A DNA stretch of 64,000 nucleotides from positions 22,874 through 86,873 of the forward strand of contig CALVAA010000008.1 in the NCBI GenBank assembly GCA_944325315.1, read 5' to 3'. Shown one piece after another: positions 1,108-64,000 of this stretch (its first letter is position 1; each line of letters opens with the position of its first letter). The notes under the pieces are model-generated. The model did not search any database. It was not told the DNA's origin and worked only from the letters and a program-made list of their open reading frames with translations. The DNA comes from Candidatus Gastranaerophilales bacterium (GTDB lineage Bacteria; Cyanobacteriota; Vampirovibrionia; Gastranaerophilales; Gastranaerophilaceae). The position numbers were made by a program, and so were the translations under genes.

Positions 1108-3302
1108 GGGTGTTGAATAAAAACATCGGACATATTTTCTAATACGCCAAAAGAATCTTCACGAGCGCTATCGCATACTTTATACCACTTTTTCCCGTCA
1201 TCGGCTTTTGGAAGTTTAACATCAATAAAGTTTGCATCTGATGAAACTGAAACAAAAAGCGGTTTTTTATCATTAACTTTATAGCACATTATATTTGAAT
1301 TTGTATTATTCCAATAAGAATTATCCCAATCATGCGCAATTGAACCATCGGGTTTAAAGTATTGAATTTGAGCTTGATTGGTTTTTATAGAATCATGAGA
1401 ATTTCTAAAATCAATCATATTTTTTGTAAAATCATATATTCTATATTCAAGACTATTTGAATCATTGATTTTTGAAAAGTCAAGATAATTTGTATCATCG
1501 TCCAAACAATAAGTGTTATTATTGCCGCCTTTTGAATGCGCTATAATATCTCCGACTTGAAGCATTGGAGTACCTTGGGCAAGTAAAGTCAGGGCAATTT
1601 GTTTTTTAATTTCATTTTCCCTGCGGCCGCTGTCGCCTCCGTAGCGCCAGAGTTCATTATTGTCTGCAAGCGTATATCCGTCATGGGAATTTGTATAATT
1701 AACAGATTTATTGAAAGCTTTCATAACACCTCTTGAACCTTCAAGAGCATCTCTTAGCTGCCTTGGAGTGTATTCAAAAGGACTGTGGGATACTTTTTTA
1801 ATTGTTTCTCTGAACTTATCATTCCACTCAGCCCAATTTGTCGGAAAATTACCAATTTGATATGCATAATCCCCGACGCAAGTCCAAGGTTCAGCTATTA
1901 AAGTTATGCCGGGACCTTTTTCATCCGGAGCTTTTACTTTTATTCCTTTTTTTTCAAGTTTTTTTGCAAGTTTTCCAACTATACTTTTATTGGTATCAAA
2001 ATAGACATTATTTCCTTCTTTGGTATCTAAAAGGCCTGCTGCAAGGTCGAATCTAAAGGCATCAACCCCTTGATTTGCCCAAAAGGCAATTGAATCGGCT
2101 ATCATTTCCATAACTTCACTATCAGCGGCATTAATATCGTTTCCGCAGCCTGAATTTTGGTTATAATATCCGCCATTTTGTTTATAGTACATTTGATTAT
2201 CCAAAAGAGCAAAACTCATCTGTTTTGCATTATCTTTTTCGCCACCAATATTTGCTCCTTCGCCTGTATGATTATAGACAACATCCATACATACTTTTAT
2301 ATTTTCTTTATGATAAGCATCAACCATTTTTCTAAATTCTCTTAAAGAACCGCCGGGGGTTTTATCGCTGGAGTATTTTTTAGCAGGTGCAAAAAAACCT
2401 AAAGTCATATAACCCCAATAGTTTCCATCATATCCTTCTTTGTGGTCAAATTCTTGAAGCGGCAAGAATTCAACCATAGATATACCGGCTTCTTTTACTT
2501 TTTTTGCCATTTGACCGGCACCAAGAAAAGTCCCCGGGGCATCAACATCTTCATTTATACTTAAATCCTTAATGTGAACTTCACCTATTACTTCATCGAC
2601 AAGGGCTCTATCTGTTGTTTTTGATAATAGTGTTGGAACTTCAACCGTAAAAACACTCTTTGGAGCAATGGATGAGTTATCTTCAAACGGTTTATATGTT
2701 GAAAAAAACGCAGGAATTCCATCGGGATTGTCTGAAGGCAAATGGCTTAATTCTCTTCCGCAAGGGTCACTTGCAATTTTATTCGGGTTAAAGCGATTGC
2801 CTTTTTCATCAACAATAGAATTAAACCCTGCTTTTGGATTTTTTATATTTCCGTTTTCGTCAAAAAAATCTTCGCTATAACGCCAATTTTCACCAAAAGC
2901 CCTATAGCCGTAATAAATTGGTTTATTTTTTCCGCCCAAAGATTTTATCGGAACAGAAGTTTGCCATACATCCTTGTTTTTTTCCATAGGCAAAGTTAAA
3001 TAAGGCTTTTTTGCCTTTGGCTCATCAAAAACGCAAAGAAAAACCTTTTCGGCATTTTTAGAAGCAACTTTAAAGTTAACTATACCTGTTCTGGGATTAA
3101 AATTCACCCCAAGGCGGGTTTTATCTTTTGTAATAAATTTTTGCTGAATTTGTCCTAAAACCTTGGCTTCTATAGCAGAAGCATAGGTTTTTCCGAAGGA
3201 AATATTTTTTGAAAAAGGAGGAGTGACCGTATTGGTATATACTTTGTTTGGCGTCTTTAAACCGTGAAAAAAATAACCGTTTTCAATCTTCCTTATTATC
3301 AT
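1077..3302 (-). CDS. glgX: glycogen debranching enzyme / isoamylase (GH13, GlgX-type)
   Basis: All four GH13 regions are present: VVYNHTGEG, GVDAFRFDLA, IAEPW and YTNSHDG. The N-terminal segment resembles CBM48, and the 741-aa length is typical of GlgX. Confidence 0.9.
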   Translation of the reverse strand: MIIRKIENGYFFHGLKTPNKVYTNTVTPPFSKNISFGKTYASAIEAKVLGQIQQKFITKDKTRLGVNFNPRTGIVNFKVASKNAEKVFLCVFDEPKAKKPYLTLPMEKNKDVWQTSVPIKSLGGKNKPIYYGYRAFGENWRYSEDFFDENGNIKNPKAGFNSIVDEKGNRFNPNKIASDPCGRELSHLPSDNPDGIPAFFSTYKPFEDNSSIAPKSVFTVEVPTLLSKTTDRALVDEVIGEVHIKDLSINEDVDAPGTFLGAGQMAKKVKEAGISMVEFLPLQEFDHKEGYDGNYWGYMTLGFFAPAKKYSSDKTPGGSLREFRKMVDAYHKENIKVCMDVVYNHTGEGANIGGEKDNAKQMSFALLDNQMYYKQNGGYYNQNSGCGNDINAADSEVMEMIADSIAFWANQGVDAFRFDLAAGLLDTKEGNNVYFDTNKSIVGKLAKKLEKKGIKVKAPDEKGPGITLIAEPWTCVGDYAYQIGNFPTNWAEWNDKFRETIKKVSHSPFEYTPRQLRDALEGSRGVMKAFNKSVNYTNSHDGYTLADNNELWRYGGDSGRRENEIKKQIALTLLAQGTPMLQVGDIIAHSKGGNNNTYCLDDDTNYLDFSKINDSNSLEYRIYDFTKNMIDFRNSHDSIKTNQAQIQYFKPDGSIAHDWDNSYWNNTNSNIMCYKVNDKKPLFVSVSSDANFIDVKLPKADDGKKWYKVCDSAREDSFGVLENMSDVFIQHPYSIVLFEQR

Positions 3303-3465
3303 GCAGCGCTCCTTTAATTCCAGTTATATAAAACATGTAAATAATTTTTATTGCCTGTTTAAAGATAAAACATATTAAGAAATAATAATATTCTTGAAGT
3401 AAAAACAATTTTGTAGTACTTTTAAAGTGTATATAGTTTACTTTTTAAAGGTTTAAGGATTAATT

Positions 3466-4569
3466 ATGGTTAAAAAACTTATCACTCAAGACACCAGAAT
3501 GTTCTTGACGGGTAATGAAGTAATTGCCTATGCCGCAAATGCAGCAGAAGCTGAGTTTATGTATGGTTACCCGATTACACCTCAAAATGAAATCATGCAC
3601 ACGTGGTGTAAATTGCTGCCTAAAACCGAAGCAGGATTTTTACAAACCGAAGATGAAATTTCTGCCGGTTTTTCAACAATTGGCGGTATTTTAGCAGGCA
3701 AAAGGGCTTTTACGGCTACGGCAGGTCCTGGTAATGTCATTATGCAAGACGCTCAATCAATGGCTGAGATGATGAGAATTCCTTTTGTTTGCGCAGTTAT
3801 GCAAAGAGGAGGCCCTTCGACTGCTACAGTAATTTATGCCCAGCAAGAAACACGTTTAACTTGTTTTGGAGGAAACGGGGAAGGCTTCAGAATTGTATAT
3901 TCAACGGCAGGACACCAGGATTTATATGATTACATGATTAAATCCTTTAATACTGCTTGGAAATACCGCTTCCCGACTTTCATGTTAGCTGACGGATATC
4001 AAGGCAAAATGAGAGAACCGGTTACATTGTATGATCCGATTTCCAGAGGCATTAAAATGGAAGCAACACCTGCTATGCTTAGAGCACCCGGTGTTATAGG
4101 GGTAGACAGAGAAGCTAATCATTTGAGAAACACATTCAATTTAGAAGAAGAATTAATGAGCCAGCTTGATCAATACCAAATTGATTATGACAAAATGAGC
4201 AAAGAAGTTGAAGAATACCTTGAATATAAAGCTGAAGATGCCGAAGTTCTTATTATTGCCCATGGTATTGTTGCAAGATCAGCAATGACAGCAGTAGACG
4301 AATTAAGACAAAAAGGCATTAAAGCAGGTTTATTCAGACCAATCACAATAAGACCTTTGGCGGTTGAACCAATGAGAAAAGCAGTTAAACAAGCAAAACA
4401 GATTTTATTTACAGAATCAGCAAACGGACAACTTGCTCAGATGTGCCTGGAAAAACTATACGGTCTTACTACTCCATATCAAACATTGTTTAAAATGGGC
4501 GTTGGCGTAACAGGCGATGATATAGTTGAAAAAGTTGAAGCCATGGTACGCCAAATGGCAGGTGTATAA
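3466..4569 (+). CDS. 2-oxoacid:ferredoxin oxidoreductase, alpha subunit
   Basis: The N-terminus GNEVIAYAANAAEAEFMYGYPITPQNEI is typical of the KorA/PorA/VorB family. An SD (AAGGA) lies upstream. It is the first of four tightly packed subunit genes. Confidence 0.9.
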   Translation: MVKKLITQDTRMFLTGNEVIAYAANAAEAEFMYGYPITPQNEIMHTWCKLLPKTEAGFLQTEDEISAGFSTIGGILAGKRAFTATAGPGNVIMQDAQSMAEMMRIPFVCAVMQRGGPSTATVIYAQQETRLTCFGGNGEGFRIVYSTAGHQDLYDYMIKSFNTAWKYRFPTFMLADGYQGKMREPVTLYDPISRGIKMEATPAMLRAPGVIGVDREANHLRNTFNLEEELMSQLDQYQIDYDKMSKEVEEYLEYKAEDAEVLIIAHGIVARSAMTAVDELRQKGIKAGLFRPITIRPLAVEPMRKAVKQAKQILFTESANGQLAQMCLEKLYGLTTPYQTLFKMGVGVTGDDIVEKVEAMVRQMAGV

Positions 4570-61707: not shown

Positions 61708-63474
61708 TTAACCTTTTGAACTATAGTGATAATATTTATCGAACACTTTAATCAATTTTTTTTCACGTTCGGTGATTGCATTTTCCTCTTTTATTAGAAT
61801 AGCATATAAATCATTTAAATTAAACTCTTTTAATAAAATTTCATCATCTGAAATATTACAATTCAGATCGCTCACAATCACATTCAAAATGTCGTATGTT
61901 GAAATATTCATAAAAGTATTAACGATATTTTCATCAAAATGTTTATTTTTTCCCTGAATCATAATTTCAAGCGCATCTTTTATTTCCATTTTGTCACGAT
62001 AGTGTCTTTTGGATGTGATAGCGTCAAATACGTCCGAAACTGCTAAAATTCTTCCTCCAAGCGGAATTTCTTCTCCTTTTAGTCCTTGAAAATATCCTGT
62101 TCCATCATATTTTTCATGGTGCGTTGAAGCAATTTGAGTTACGTCTTTAAAGTTTTTTGAAATATATACTTTACCTAAAATGTTATGGGTTAATCTAACG
62201 TGTTCTTTGATGTGTTCATATTCTTCTTTGGTTAATTTTCCTTCCTTTTGTAAAACGGAATCTTTAATTCCGATTTTTCCGATATCATGTAACAGTGAAG
62301 CATTTTTGATAATTTCTTTTTCTTCATCTGATAATTTACACTTATCACAAATTAACCCGGCATACATAGTAACTCTTCTGGAATGGCCGGATGTTATTTT
62401 GTCTCTGGCATCAATTGAAGCTGAAAGGGTATCAATGAAACTTGAGAATAGTTCTTTTTGTTCTTCTATTAGTTTTTTTTGTTTGTTAAAAAGATTAGCA
62501 TTTTCTAAGGCAATACCGGCAGATGAGCCTATTGCAATTAAAAGATCTTCATCTTTTTGGCTGAAATCACCGTCGATTTTGTTTAGCACCTGAAAAACAC
62601 CGACTATTTGGTGGGAAAGATTTCTAATCGGCATACAAAGAATATTTCTTGTTTTATACCCTGTTTGAAGATCGATTTCTTTATTAAAGTATTCACTTTC
62701 ATAAGCATTTTTTATATTAACGGTTTCGCCCGTCATTGCAACATGCCCTGCCAAACCCTTATTTTTTGCAAATCTTATTTCCTTAATTTCAAGTCCCAGA
62801 GCAACTTTACTCCAAAGTTCATTGTGTTCATCATCAAGCAAAAAAACCGTGCATCTGTCTGCTTGAAGTGCTTGTTGGATTTGCTGCGCTATAATCGTCA
62901 ACAAGCTATCGATGTTTGTTTCAATTGCTATAGTTCTTCCGACTTGCAAAAGCGCTAAAAGCGCATCGTCTTTAATTTCATTTGGGATAAAAGACGGAGG
63001 AGCGGATGAAATTATTTTTTGTTGATTCTCACTTTCAATTTTTTGACGGTATTTTAATATTGTCTCATCATAATTTTCTTTGCCGCCTGTTTTGATATAA
63101 AGACTTGCCTTGATTAGATTTAAGGCTACTTCTATGTTTTTTTCATAATACTCAATCAGACTCGAGCAAAAAAGATTAATTTTTTGAGCTTCAAGACTAT
63201 TTGATGAATTAGCAAGATATTTTGCATCGTTTAAAAGATTTAAAGTTTGATAATATCTTGCACCTTGTTTGTAGTTGTTCAAAGCAAGATATGACATTGC
63301 TATTGAAACCAAATCGAAAGCTTTAAGAGCAATTGAGGATTTATGGATAGTGTTTAATTCACGATTGTTTAATGGCTTGTCTAAAGCAACATGAGTAAAA
63401 AAAGAGTCCACAAGAAACTCTCTCAATTTGCTATATCCGCAAACATCGTTAATATTTTGAGTTAATTTTGTCAT
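61708..63474 (-). CDS. GAF domain / HD-GYP domain protein (c-di-GMP phosphodiesterase family)
   Basis: Contains a GAF-like segment (DRCTVFLLDDEHNELWSK...MPIRN), the HD motif (LLHDIGKIGI) and HHEKYDGTGYFQGLKGEEIPLGGRILAVSDVFDA (GYP). Confidence 0.85.
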   Translation of the reverse strand: MTKLTQNINDVCGYSKLREFLVDSFFTHVALDKPLNNRELNTIHKSSIALKAFDLVSIAMSYLALNNYKQGARYYQTLNLLNDAKYLANSSNSLEAQKINLFCSSLIEYYEKNIEVALNLIKASLYIKTGGKENYDETILKYRQKIESENQQKIISSAPPSFIPNEIKDDALLALLQVGRTIAIETNIDSLLTIIAQQIQQALQADRCTVFLLDDEHNELWSKVALGLEIKEIRFAKNKGLAGHVAMTGETVNIKNAYESEYFNKEIDLQTGYKTRNILCMPIRNLSHQIVGVFQVLNKIDGDFSQKDEDLLIAIGSSAGIALENANLFNKQKKLIEEQKELFSSFIDTLSASIDARDKITSGHSRRVTMYAGLICDKCKLSDEEKEIIKNASLLHDIGKIGIKDSVLQKEGKLTKEEYEHIKEHVRLTHNILGKVYISKNFKDVTQIASTHHEKYDGTGYFQGLKGEEIPLGGRILAVSDVFDAITSKRHYRDKMEIKDALEIMIQGKNKHFDENIVNTFMNISTYDILNVIVSDLNCNISDDEILLKEFNLNDLYAILIKEENAITEREKKLIKVFDKYYHYSSKG

Positions 63475-63490
63475 ATCTATCCTAATTTAT

Positions 63491-63519
63491 ATTGTAGAAT
63501 TATTGAAAGACAATGTCAA
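63491..63519 (-). promoter_or_regulatory. near-consensus sigma-70 promoter (TTGACA-17-TACAAT) for the GAF/HD-GYP gene
   Basis: On the minus strand, TTGACA lies at 63519-63514 and TACAAT at 63496-63491. The ATG is 16 nt downstream, preceded by TAGGAT. Confidence 0.65.
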
Positions 63520-63534
63520 TTAATACATCATATT

Positions 63535-63558
63535 AAAACCCCGAAATTTCGGGGTTTT
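63535..63558 (-). terminator. rho-independent terminator ending the S1-domain gene transcript
   Basis: AAAACCCCGAAATTTCGGGGTTTT is a perfect 8-bp palindromic stem with U-runs on both strands. Confidence 0.8.
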
Positions 63559-63660
63559 AATATTTATGTTTTCTGCAATCTGGACAAATTGAAATCATAA
63601 CAGATTGTAAATAAGCAACATAATATAATAAAAGCCAATGCTCAACGCAAGCTCGTTATT

Positions 63661-63888
63661 GCACCGGCTTTACGCATTCTTTGCTCCTGTCAAATTCGCC
63701 TTCGGCAAGAATTTGAAACGTCGCTATCGTAGTGCTTCGGGTCAAACTCAACGTTTGCCCCTCTCGCACCGGCTTTACGCATTCTTTGCTCCTGTCAAAT
63801 TCGCCTTCGGCAAGAATTTGAAACGTCGCTATCGTAGTGCTTCGGGTCAAACTCAACGTTTGCCCCTCTCGCACCGGCTTTACGCATT
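63661..63888 (-). repeat. 105-bp perfect tandem repeat (2 full copies plus an 18-bp partial copy), GC-rich double-hairpin unit
   Basis: 63661-63765 and 63766-63870 are identical base for base. 63871-63888 repeats the first 18 nt and overlaps the stop codon of the adjacent minus-strand CDS. Confidence 0.9.
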
Positions 63889-64000
63889 AAATTTGGATTT
63901 TTCTTCTTCACTTAAACCCTTAATTGTAAGATTCACTCTGCCTTTGTCATCTATCTTTTGAACTTTGACAATAACTTCTTGTCCAATTGAAAGATGGGGT
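63880..64000 (-). CDS. S1 RNA-binding domain protein, C-terminal fragment (PNPase-like C-terminus); 5' part outside window
   Basis: The minus-strand frame reads ...PHLSIGQEVIVKVQKIDDKGRVNLTIKGLSEEEKSKFNA*. The pattern GQEVxVKVxxxDxxGRxxL(S/T)IK is typical of S1 domains, including the E. coli PNPase C-terminus. Confidence 0.6.
   Translation of the reverse strand, partial: PHLSIGQEVIVKVQKIDDKGRVNLTIKGLSEEEKSKFNA

Follow-up and report, generated by a model that had tools for sequence, protein, structure and literature searches.

The pnp gene of a Candidatus Gastranaerophilales bacterium, which encodes polynucleotide phosphorylase (PNPase), is followed by a perfect tandem array of a 105-nucleotide (nt) GC-rich unit. 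We analyzed this array in a 64,000-nt stretch of the genome (contig CALVAA010000008.1 of assembly GCA_944325315.1). This whole stretch is called the window here, and all positions are given in its coordinates. Most probably, the array arose when a single unit was recently duplicated in place, in tandem; this unit belongs to a family of modular, structured, GC-rich repeats specific to the Gastranaerophilales (Melainabacteria/Vampirovibrionia) lineage. In our best reading, this family is analogous to the REP/BIME, BOX, and RtT repeats and is neither a PNPase-linked regulator nor a small gene.

An earlier sequence-only reading of the window had described a perfect 105-bp tandem duplication in the 3' untranslated region (UTR) of a PNPase-like gene with an S1 domain, and both parts of this description were borne out. 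Tandem Repeats Finder (TRF) returned a single array with a period of 105, 2.2 copies, 100% matches, 0 indels, and a score of 456, and inspection of the sequence gave 2.17 identical copies of the unit. The open reading frame (ORF) list and its translation identified the minus-strand coding sequence as the C-terminal S1 domain of PNPase, ending in ...SKFNA and a stop, and the full gene product read from the genome was PNPase. As had been claimed, the third, partial copy of 18 bp spans the end of the coding sequence: it holds the codons AAU and GCG and the stop codon of pnp (TAA, 63880 to 63882). The G+C content was 0.48 to 0.51 within the array versus 0.21 to 0.41 in the adjoining 100-nt intervals on both sides, in agreement with the GC-richness noted earlier. 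The source genome as a whole (1.81 Mb in 34 contigs) has a G+C content of 31.6%.

A dispersed family of structured units

A covariance model of the unit, termed R1, has 92 positions and 29 pairs, and its training set consisted of 20 units, all from other genomes. In the window, R1 gave exactly two matches, both full length and on the minus strand, with 58.8 bits and an E value of about 1e-12 each. Further copies, for which the sequence-only reading had suggested a search, were found in the genome and in its relatives. R1 identified 13 units in the whole source genome. Across a sample of 151 genomes from 44 genera of the order, units were present in 63 genomes and 23 genera, and their number ranged from 0 to at least 25 per genome; all of these figures are lower bounds because few candidates were scored in each genome. 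A strict-motif search (GGCGACG-N14-40-CAGGAGC) found matches in 34 of the 151 genomes, while the reversed pattern, used as the control, gave almost none. In a comparison sample of 301 genomes of the phylum, hairpin-type matches were confined to this order. Matches in other cyanobacterial classes resembled random GC-rich sequence, had no hairpin insert, and occurred at the control frequency.

BLAST within the source genome placed unit positions 17 to 77 or 20 to 77, at 95 to 97% identity, behind a gyrB-like gene on contig C23 and positions 58 to 105, at 96% identity, in a terminal tandem array of contig C22. Because its two modules occur separately at these two loci, the pnp unit is a mosaic. 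Modules are thus shuffled between copies, with the pnp unit combining a C22-type module 1 and a gyrB/C23-type module 2. Further copies in the source genome follow the tmRNA gene, tRNA-Ser(CGA), a tRNA-Met, and groEL. Two- and three-unit tandems occur elsewhere (3 x 95 nt in G127:C1 and 2 x 112 nt in G109:C3), and perfect tandems of two to three family units were found in many independent assemblies. Several source-genome contigs stop exactly at tRNA 3' ends, as expected if the repeat sits there.

The nearest relatives of the protein encoded next to the array, a GAF/HD-GYP protein, all come from metagenome-assembled genomes of 'Candidatus Gastranaerophilales', Melainabacteria, or Vampirovibrio from animal guts. 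Neither the unit-to-unit nor the gene-to-unit junction was found in JGI metagenome contigs, and blastn against a phage collection gave no match to the unit. Full-text literature searches turned up no account of repeats of this kind from Melainabacteria or Gastranaerophilales. The repeat family seems to be undescribed.

Both hairpins proposed in the sequence-only reading were recovered by RNAfold as minimum-free-energy folds of the minus strand. Hairpin 1 is GGUGC..GGG.CAAAC[GUUGA]GUUUG.CCC..GCACU, and hairpin 2 is UCAAAUUC..GCC[GAA]GGC GAAUUUGA, which lies within a closing helix (AGCGACG/CAGGAGC). Across the family, units are 86 to 140 nt long and have two independent modules on a common plan, namely, a GCGURAGCC start, a long hairpin whose apical loop is conserved, a linker of (A)CGAU or UUGAUA, a GGCGACG...CAGGAGC helix, and a few A residues. 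The GCGURAGC start forms a two-pair stem with a GUAA, GUGA, or GCAA loop of the GNRA type. Because this mini-stem loop is GNRA (GUAA/GUGA), a UAA or UGA recurs at a fixed position of the unit. Module 1 is a hairpin of three tiers with either a G-N-N-G-A pentaloop or a GNRA loop at its tip; the apical loops seen were GUUGA, GAUGA, GACGA, GAGGA, and GUGGA, with a GAGA tetraloop in one copy. Module 2 consists of an exchangeable hairpin enclosed by a helix (GGCGACG/CAGGAGC) that is closed by tandem G·A pairs. The tandem G·A/A·G was present in the closing helix of 84 of 88 units and is replaced by G-C/C-G in GCCGCCG/CAGGCGG variants. A CGAG/CGAG and GAGC/GCGA arrangement recurs within the module 2 inserts and beneath the apical stem.

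Covariation in related sequences, which the sequence-only reading had put forward as a check, was evident in these stems. Among 90 distinct model-aligned units, 75% of pair cells were standard compared to 54% after shuffling, and both sides had changed in 26 of the 29 modeled pairs. The covariation score was 0.44 versus 0.14 for shuffled alignments (0 of 500 shuffles reached 0.44), and sliding the 3' partners brought pairing down to 30 to 47%. Three helix segments of module 1, comprising 7 of its 17 pairs, were paired in 90 to 98% of cells with at least four pair types per position. In 21-nt segments around 37 distinct apical loops, pairing was 88% versus 53% and the score was 0.86 versus 0.24. 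The test of module 2 is less circular, since the search pattern fixes its flanks only. About 75 of 80 distinct module 2 sequences formed a hairpin inside the closing helix, with many unrelated stems, and most of the exceptions were chance or coding matches to the loosened pattern.

Mismatches in the modeled pairs were compared with their equivalents on the opposite strand. G·U outnumbered A·C by 136 to 53, and G·A outnumbered C·U by 146 to 50. Because mismatches tolerable only on the sense strand dominate, the folded strand is the mRNA-sense strand. This argues for a constraint at the RNA level, or at least at the single-strand level, on the folded strand.

Placement at gene ends and at the pnp locus

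At least 27 arrays adjoin a long same-strand ORF at its stop codon. This census counted only ORFs of about 145 codons or more adjoining a unit; an earlier threshold of 70 codons was dropped because spurious ORFs inside the GC-rich arrays confounded the orientation. Such spurious ORFs should not be annotated as genes. The stop codon lies 41 to 142 nt ahead of the first module 2 and is often the unit's own UAA or UGA or up to 11 nt upstream of it. Hosts identified by Pfam encode a ClpB-like AAA+ protein, FlhA, enolase, IspH, phage lysozyme, flagellin, S-adenosylhomocysteine (AdoHcy) hydrolase, phosphoenolpyruvate (PEP) carboxykinase, and EF-Ts. A second, independent enolase locus (L106) was recognized by eye from the ORF sequence, and the other hosts are pnp, gyrB, groEL, and tRNA and tmRNA genes. 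These host genes mostly correspond to abundant transcripts. In the cases read, intrinsic terminators lie downstream of the arrays. Given their sense orientation at gene 3' ends upstream of a terminator, the units are expected to be transcribed as a 3' UTR or trailer.

The features of the pnp locus are listed in Table 1. The array lies between the pnp stop codon and a terminator, as the sequence-only reading had it, and thus falls within the pnp transcription unit. From this position, it would be cotranscribed with pnp as a long structured 3' UTR, whose length is about 320 to 345 nt. A degenerate relic of hairpin 1 had also been reported beyond the second copy. Sequence related to hairpin 1 is indeed present there, but rather than a relic it is the first 37 nt of another unit subtype (GCGUAAAGCCGGUGCAAUAACGAGCUUGCGUUGAGCA) and matches the C23 unit that follows gyrB. 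The first 18 nt of this piece (AAUGCGUAAAGCCGGUGC, with 63676 to 63678) are a unit start, the sequence that follows is of the gyrB type (AAUAACGAGCUUGCGUUGAGCA), and the piece is cut off just past the pentaloop. The next gene, at 61708 to 63474, encodes the GAF/HD-GYP protein, as identified from its Pfam domains. A promoter-like site inside the pnp end (ATGACA-16-TACAAT, 10/12, at 63950 to 63923 on the minus strand) is, like all promoter-like sites reported here, a match in a consensus scan only.

Table 1. Features of the array and its surroundings at the pnp locus, in window coordinates
Feature	Position	Strand	Evidence or remark
pnp 3' end (PNPase S1 domain, ...KGLSEEEKSKFNA and stop)	63880..64000	-	ORF translation, genome reading; last two codons and stop in first unit
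Tandem array, phase of the sequence-only reading	63661..63888	.	Sequence and TRF
18-nt direct repeats AATGCGTAAAGCCGGTGC (minus strand)	63871-63888, 63766-63783, 63661-63678	-	
Unit copy 1, 105 nt, element phase	63781..63885	-	R1 match 63788-63885(-), full length, 58.8 bits, E 1e-12
Copy 1 mini-stem GCGUAAAGC	63885-63877	-	
Copy 1 module 1, three-tier hairpin with GUUGA pentaloop	63875-63836	-	RNAfold
Copy 1 linker ACGAU	Between modules 1 and 2	-	
Copy 1 module 2, closing helix AGCGACG/CAGGAGC around exchangeable hairpin	63830-63788	-	RNAfold
Copy 1 A-rich linker AAAGAAU	63787-63781	-	
Unit copy 2, identical to copy 1	63676..63780	-	TRF 100% identity; R1 match 63683-63780(-), 58.8 bits
Copy 2 modules	Module 1 63770-63731; module 2 63725-63683	-	
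Terminal partial unit, other subtype	63639..63675	-	Direct comparison with C23:8341-8438
Palindromic intrinsic terminator AAAACCCCGAAAUUUCGGGGUUUU ending the pnp transcript, downstream of array	63530..63563 (core 63535-63558)	.	Terminator scan
Promoter-like TTGACA-17-TACAAT, 11/12	63491..63519	-	Consensus scan; for next gene, marks end of pnp transcription unit

The sequence-only reading had tied the element to pnp, and this tie did not survive comparison. The family is dispersed over the 13 units of the source genome and the 63 genomes of the order, and 25 of 30 same-genus genomes with a pnp orthologue (89 to 95% identity; source genome included) have no unit after pnp. In most of these 25, the stop codon is followed by a short AT-rich spacer and then the terminator. 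The five with units are the source genome, L071, L080, L081, and L083, and the unit subtypes behind pnp differ among them. The PNPase C termini ..KAQAGV, ..KSRV, and ..KFNA, each followed by the stop, are encoded by the 5' end of a unit. In L076, a truncated 5' piece of a unit is all that follows pnp, which resembles a footprint. The downstream neighbor of pnp varies among the 30 congeners. At the 30 closest loci with an HD-GYP orthologue, none has pnp upstream and only one carries units. The adjacency of pnp and the HD-GYP gene (63475 to 63879 in the window; loci L055 to L083 and L130 to L159 compared) is therefore unique to this species, which places the array at a synteny break or rearrangement junction. 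Because of this uniqueness, no orthologous empty site with both flanks conserved was found.

Several other elements of these genomes contain family units. A near-identical element of about 190 nt with one family unit (C1:142330-142545, C29:640-832, L015, and L028) follows the tmRNA gene in three genomes of two genera (the source, one congener, and one genome of another genus) and also lies behind tRNA-Ser(CGA) in the source genome. On either side lie ATCTCCA/ATCTCCGT repeats of the RNA gene 3' end, resembling the att sites of integrated elements, and no integrase was found within 6 kb of the tmRNA copy. In a same-genus genome, an ORF-free repeat of about 550 nt has at least five copies (L124 at 2963 to 3510 in G129:C1, L039, L046, L047, and L050). 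Each copy carries one family unit at the same place between long inverted A/T-rich arms and has no Rfam match. Repeats at C28:1-215 and C4:113596-113762, both at contig ends, incorporate the first 18 to 22 nt of a tRNA: GCCCTGGTAGCTCAGCTG is fused to a family unit on C28, and C4 carries the 5' end of tRNA-Ile. ARAGORN found no tRNA-Arg(UCU) in the assembly, and so this gene may lie in the gap beside C28. In a phage-like cluster (L037, G106:C13), a unit lies between two ORFs and its 3' end, CAGGAGCAAAGAAAUG, forms the Shine-Dalgarno sequence and start codon of the downstream gene. In genus g17, the blocks that hold copies L110, L112, L116, and L117 share a conserved core of about 80 nt (GACAGCGGAUUUUGCGAGACGUGAAACGUCAUUUGUGAACAGCCUGUUGAAGGCUGUGAACCCGCAAUAAUCCAAGA), have a promoter-like TTGACG-17-TGTTAAAAT upstream, and gave no Rfam match. 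These blocks may be a stand-alone large structured RNA.

Changes in copy number and exchange between arrays

An independent assembly of the same species (L128; identical HD-GYP protein, few single-nucleotide polymorphisms [SNPs]) has 1.17 copies, and its single unit lies between two of the 18-nt repeats seen here. In another contig, L126, the sequence ends exactly at a unit boundary. Two or more copies in the source genome are thus credible, but the number is either strain variable or assembly sensitive. Of the two 18-nt copies (AAUGCGUAAAGCCGGUGC) that bracket a unit, the left one consists of the pnp end plus the unit start, and the right one opens the truncated unit that comes next. The two-unit state probably arose from these 18-nt repeats, through slipped-strand mispairing or unequal recombination.

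Partial 5' unit pieces of 14 to 60 nt end about one third of the family arrays. We had considered a precise cut at the pentaloop, as three terminal partial units end past this loop, but the end points in the census vary over 14 to 60 nt and the idea was dropped. The array on contig C22 is a perfect tandem of 101 nt x 2.4 that also includes the gene end. Successive unit starts form short direct repeats, and exchange between these makes arrays longer or shorter.

Perfect tandems that take in a gene end were also seen at two other loci. Directly behind groEL, C23:24014-24358 is a 164-nt x 2.1 tandem whose units begin with the last 15 nt of groEL (ATGGGAATGATGTAA). Behind tRNA-Leu(CAA), C17:13294-13550 is a 106-nt x 2.4 tandem whose units end with the last 11 nt of the tRNA (GGCCATCGGCA); this unit is unrelated to the family and has no R1 match. 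The groEL-end piece ATGGGAATGATGTAA also lies inside the pnp array of L071, which shows that arrays at different loci trade internal segments. The simplest route for this exchange would be gene conversion, acting on homologous units.

Known repeats and alternative explanations

A permissive cmscan of the array and 12 related arrays against Rfam 15, including the hammerhead, twister, pistol, hatchet, HEARO/omega RNA, ROOL, and GOLLD families, gave no match to the element. The scan returned weak terminator-like chance matches and the neighboring tRNA and RNase P genes only. Hammerhead-like CUGAUGA...GAAA, box C/D-like UGAUGA, twister, and CsrA-sponge CAGGA motifs were set aside as inconsistent across units and without Rfam support. 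An integron attC site was considered since the loop in the source genome, GTTGAGY, fits GTTRRRY. However, this motif sits at the hairpin apex, the loop reads GATGAG or GACGAG in other genomes, and there are no ORF cassettes between units. A miniature inverted-repeat transposable element does not fit either. Terminal inverted repeats are absent, as the two ends of the unit (GCGUAAAGCCGGUGC... and ...GACAGGAGCAAAGAAU) are not reverse complementary, and the flanking direct repeats are the partial units of 14 to 60 nt at about one third of arrays, with no duplication of fixed length. The RAYT/Y1 transposase (PF01797) was detected in 1 of 16 genomes tested, with control genomes responding, and was absent from the copy-rich genomes G000, G129, G134, G109, G130, G023, and G032. 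Reverse transcriptase (RVT_1, PF00078) was absent from G000, G129, G134, G023, and G032 and present in several genomes with few or zero units. A retroelement-derived repeat (short interspersed nuclear element-like, retron, or group II intron borne) was therefore rejected, as RVT_1 is missing where the units have multiplied.

The closest likenesses are to known extragenic repeats. REP/BIME and the REPINs of Pseudomonas are also GC-rich, hairpin-forming, extragenic, clustered, and strain variable and lie mostly in 3' UTRs before the terminator. Their extragenic 3' placement inside a transcription unit is shared by the at least 27 arrays that adjoin a same-sense stop codon with terminators downstream. 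However, REPs are single palindromes of 20 to 40 nt, usually in inverted pairs and tied to the RAYT (Y1) transposase, whereas the present units are 86 to 140 nt, two-module, and head-to-tail, with GNRA-like loops and tandem G·A pairs, and their copy-rich genomes lack RAYT. RtT of the Escherichia coli tyrT operon (RF00391) likewise consists of tandem direct repeats behind a gene, each with the gene's 3' end, transcribed as a trailer. The same a-(bc-a)n architecture is seen at pnp (18 nt with codons N and A and the stop), groEL (15 nt, ATGGGAATGATGTAA), and tRNA-Leu (11 nt). RtT is confined to one or two tRNA loci, whereas the Gastranaerophilales units extend over many protein and RNA genes and genera, and RF00391 gave no match at E values up to 10 in 63400 to 64000 or up to 0.01 in the 12 other arrays.

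BOX elements of Streptococcus pneumoniae (boxA-boxB(n)-boxC) are modular intergenic repeats with exchangeable or repeated middles, are transcribed with neighboring genes into stable RNA folds, and have no known transposase of their own. This resemblance is architectural only. BOX belongs to an unrelated lineage and sequence, its modules are 45 to 59 nt, and boxB alone repeats, whereas the Gastranaerophilales array repeats whole two-module units and adjoins stop codons. MIRUs (mycobacterial interspersed repetitive units) are tandem direct repeats of 40 to 100 nt in operons, co-oriented with genes and strain variable in copy number; they overlap the upstream stop and can supply a downstream Shine-Dalgarno sequence and start codon, as in L037. 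MIRUs are defined by small overlapping ORFs and not by covarying hairpin modules, and the units here have no conserved ORF. Rickettsia palindromic elements are GC-richer structured repeats of an AT-rich genome that can enter coding sequences, and several PNPase C termini (..AQAGV, ..SRV, and ..FNA before the stop) come from a unit 5' end. Those elements insert in frame and are translated, whereas the units touch the last codons only and bring the stop.

Among the alternatives, that the second copy is an assembly artifact, with a true count of one or of more than two, we judge improbable. The single unit of L128 and the contig end at a unit boundary in L126 would agree with it. However, assemblers collapse tandem repeats and do not invent them, the array is 10.7 kb inside the contig end, and perfect tandems of the family recur in many independent assemblies. 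Moreover, L128 represents another strain, given its SNPs, and comes from a k=87 assembly unable to resolve a 105-nt period. That the unit encodes a small protein is hardly credible. The sequence-only reading had offered a 30-codon ORF (MRKAGARGANVEFDPKHYDSDVSNSCRRRI) behind an AGGAG ribosome-binding site, and frames of 72 and 107 amino acids run through the repeat. The ORFs are open, the ATG lies 6 nt past AGGAG, and the L037 unit does give a Shine-Dalgarno sequence and start to the next gene with its CAGGAGCAAAGAAAUG. This proposal failed on the family, since an ATG follows CAGGAGC by 3 to 12 nt in just 17 of 98 distinct junctions and the resulting peptides are unrelated and 2 to 48 amino acids long. 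Unit lengths are not multiples of three, so no frame is kept, substitutions preserve base pairs and not codons, and AGGAG belongs to the conserved closing helix, as its 3' strand (CAGGAGC). We also find it very doubtful that the array is a pnp-specific cis-regulatory 3' UTR or the source of a 3'-UTR-derived small RNA acting on PNPase or controlled by it. The placement of the array in the pnp 3' UTR upstream of the terminator speaks for such a role. PNPase is a 3'-to-5' exonuclease that is stalled by stable stems, and the promoter-like site inside the pnp end could drive a separate transcript, although it is a consensus match only. But units also lie behind gyrB, groEL, eno, tsf, fliC, and tRNA/tmRNA genes, no unit follows pnp in 25 of 30 congeners, and the pnp unit itself is a mosaic of modules from two other loci.

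The elements might instead act as DNA, as REP-like sites for a transposase, gyrase, or nucleoid protein or as recombination sites, with RNA folding being incidental. They are dispersed, GC-rich, and hairpin forming, the pnp array sits at a species-unique adjacency, and the tmRNA and tRNA-Ser copies have att-like flanks (ATCTCCA/ATCTCCGT). We nevertheless consider a DNA-level role quite improbable, as no RAYT/Y1 transposase was found in 15 of the 16 genomes tested (copy-rich G000, G129, and G134 included), the units are direct and not inverted, G·U and G·A far exceed their opposite-strand equivalents, and GNRA-type loops are RNA motifs. A different possibility is that the units are domesticated RNA modules, i.e., binding platforms with GNRA-like loops and kink-turn-like tandem G·A pairs for a shared trans-acting partner. 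Loop and linker motifs conserved in at least 23 genera while the stems covary, mismatches that favor the sense strand, strictly sense orientation at stop codons, and the multi-module blocks with a promoter-like site all point this way. We still regard domestication as unlikely, because the distribution is patchy (88 of 151 genomes without a match and 0 to 25 units among close relatives), insertions are gained and lost at the same locus, near-identical copies within a genome point to recent bursts, and no partner was found. Finally, there is some small chance that the units are an unrecognized mobile structured RNA element. Such an element would copy, together with host-gene ends, to the stops of other highly expressed genes and to tRNA/tmRNA 3' ends, always in the sense orientation, without RAYT or a resident reverse transcriptase.

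We thus favor a recently duplicated unit of a REP/BIME-like family, against which several points have to be set. The two-copy count rests on one assembly, and the other assembly has one copy, possibly through k=87 collapse. The R1-based alignment is fitted to the modeled structure and leans towards it, and the 37 apical segments were picked by RNAfold. Loop and linker motifs are strongly conserved from genus to genus, which may point to a role that goes beyond forming a stable hairpin. In genus g17, copies L110, L112, L116, and L117 are embedded in multi-module blocks that are long and GC-rich, are preceded by a promoter-like site, and have a terminator on the opposite strand, and therefore not every copy is a 3'-UTR passenger. 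REP/BIME stabilize upstream mRNA against 3' exonucleases. By this analogy and from its position, the RNA form of the unit would be a stable 3' structure and a likely barrier to 3'-to-5' exonucleases. Apart from this, the unit would be a neutral or selfish passenger and not a regulator dedicated to pnp.

REP/BIME, BOX, ERIC, and RtT repeats shape mRNA stability, operon polarity, and genome rearrangement. To our knowledge, interspersed structured repeats are known almost only from cultured model bacteria. The present family, which seems not to have been catalogued before, comes from uncultured gut relatives of the cyanobacteria. Its signatures at the RNA level are unusually clear: its stems covary, its loops are GNRA-like, its helices hold tandem G·A pairs, and its units face strictly in the sense direction at stop codons. 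Host-gene ends are captured by the family, which has no recognizable transposase. It accounts for many contig breaks at tRNA genes and for perfect tandems in these metagenome-assembled genomes, and its variable copy number offers a marker for strain discrimination. If the units do prove to be a mobile RNA element, this would mean a 3'-end-directed copying or recombination mechanism not known so far, or else a domesticated system of exchangeable 3'-UTR modules with a partner. Should the mechanism of spreading be new, it would bear on how nonautonomous elements move in bacteria.

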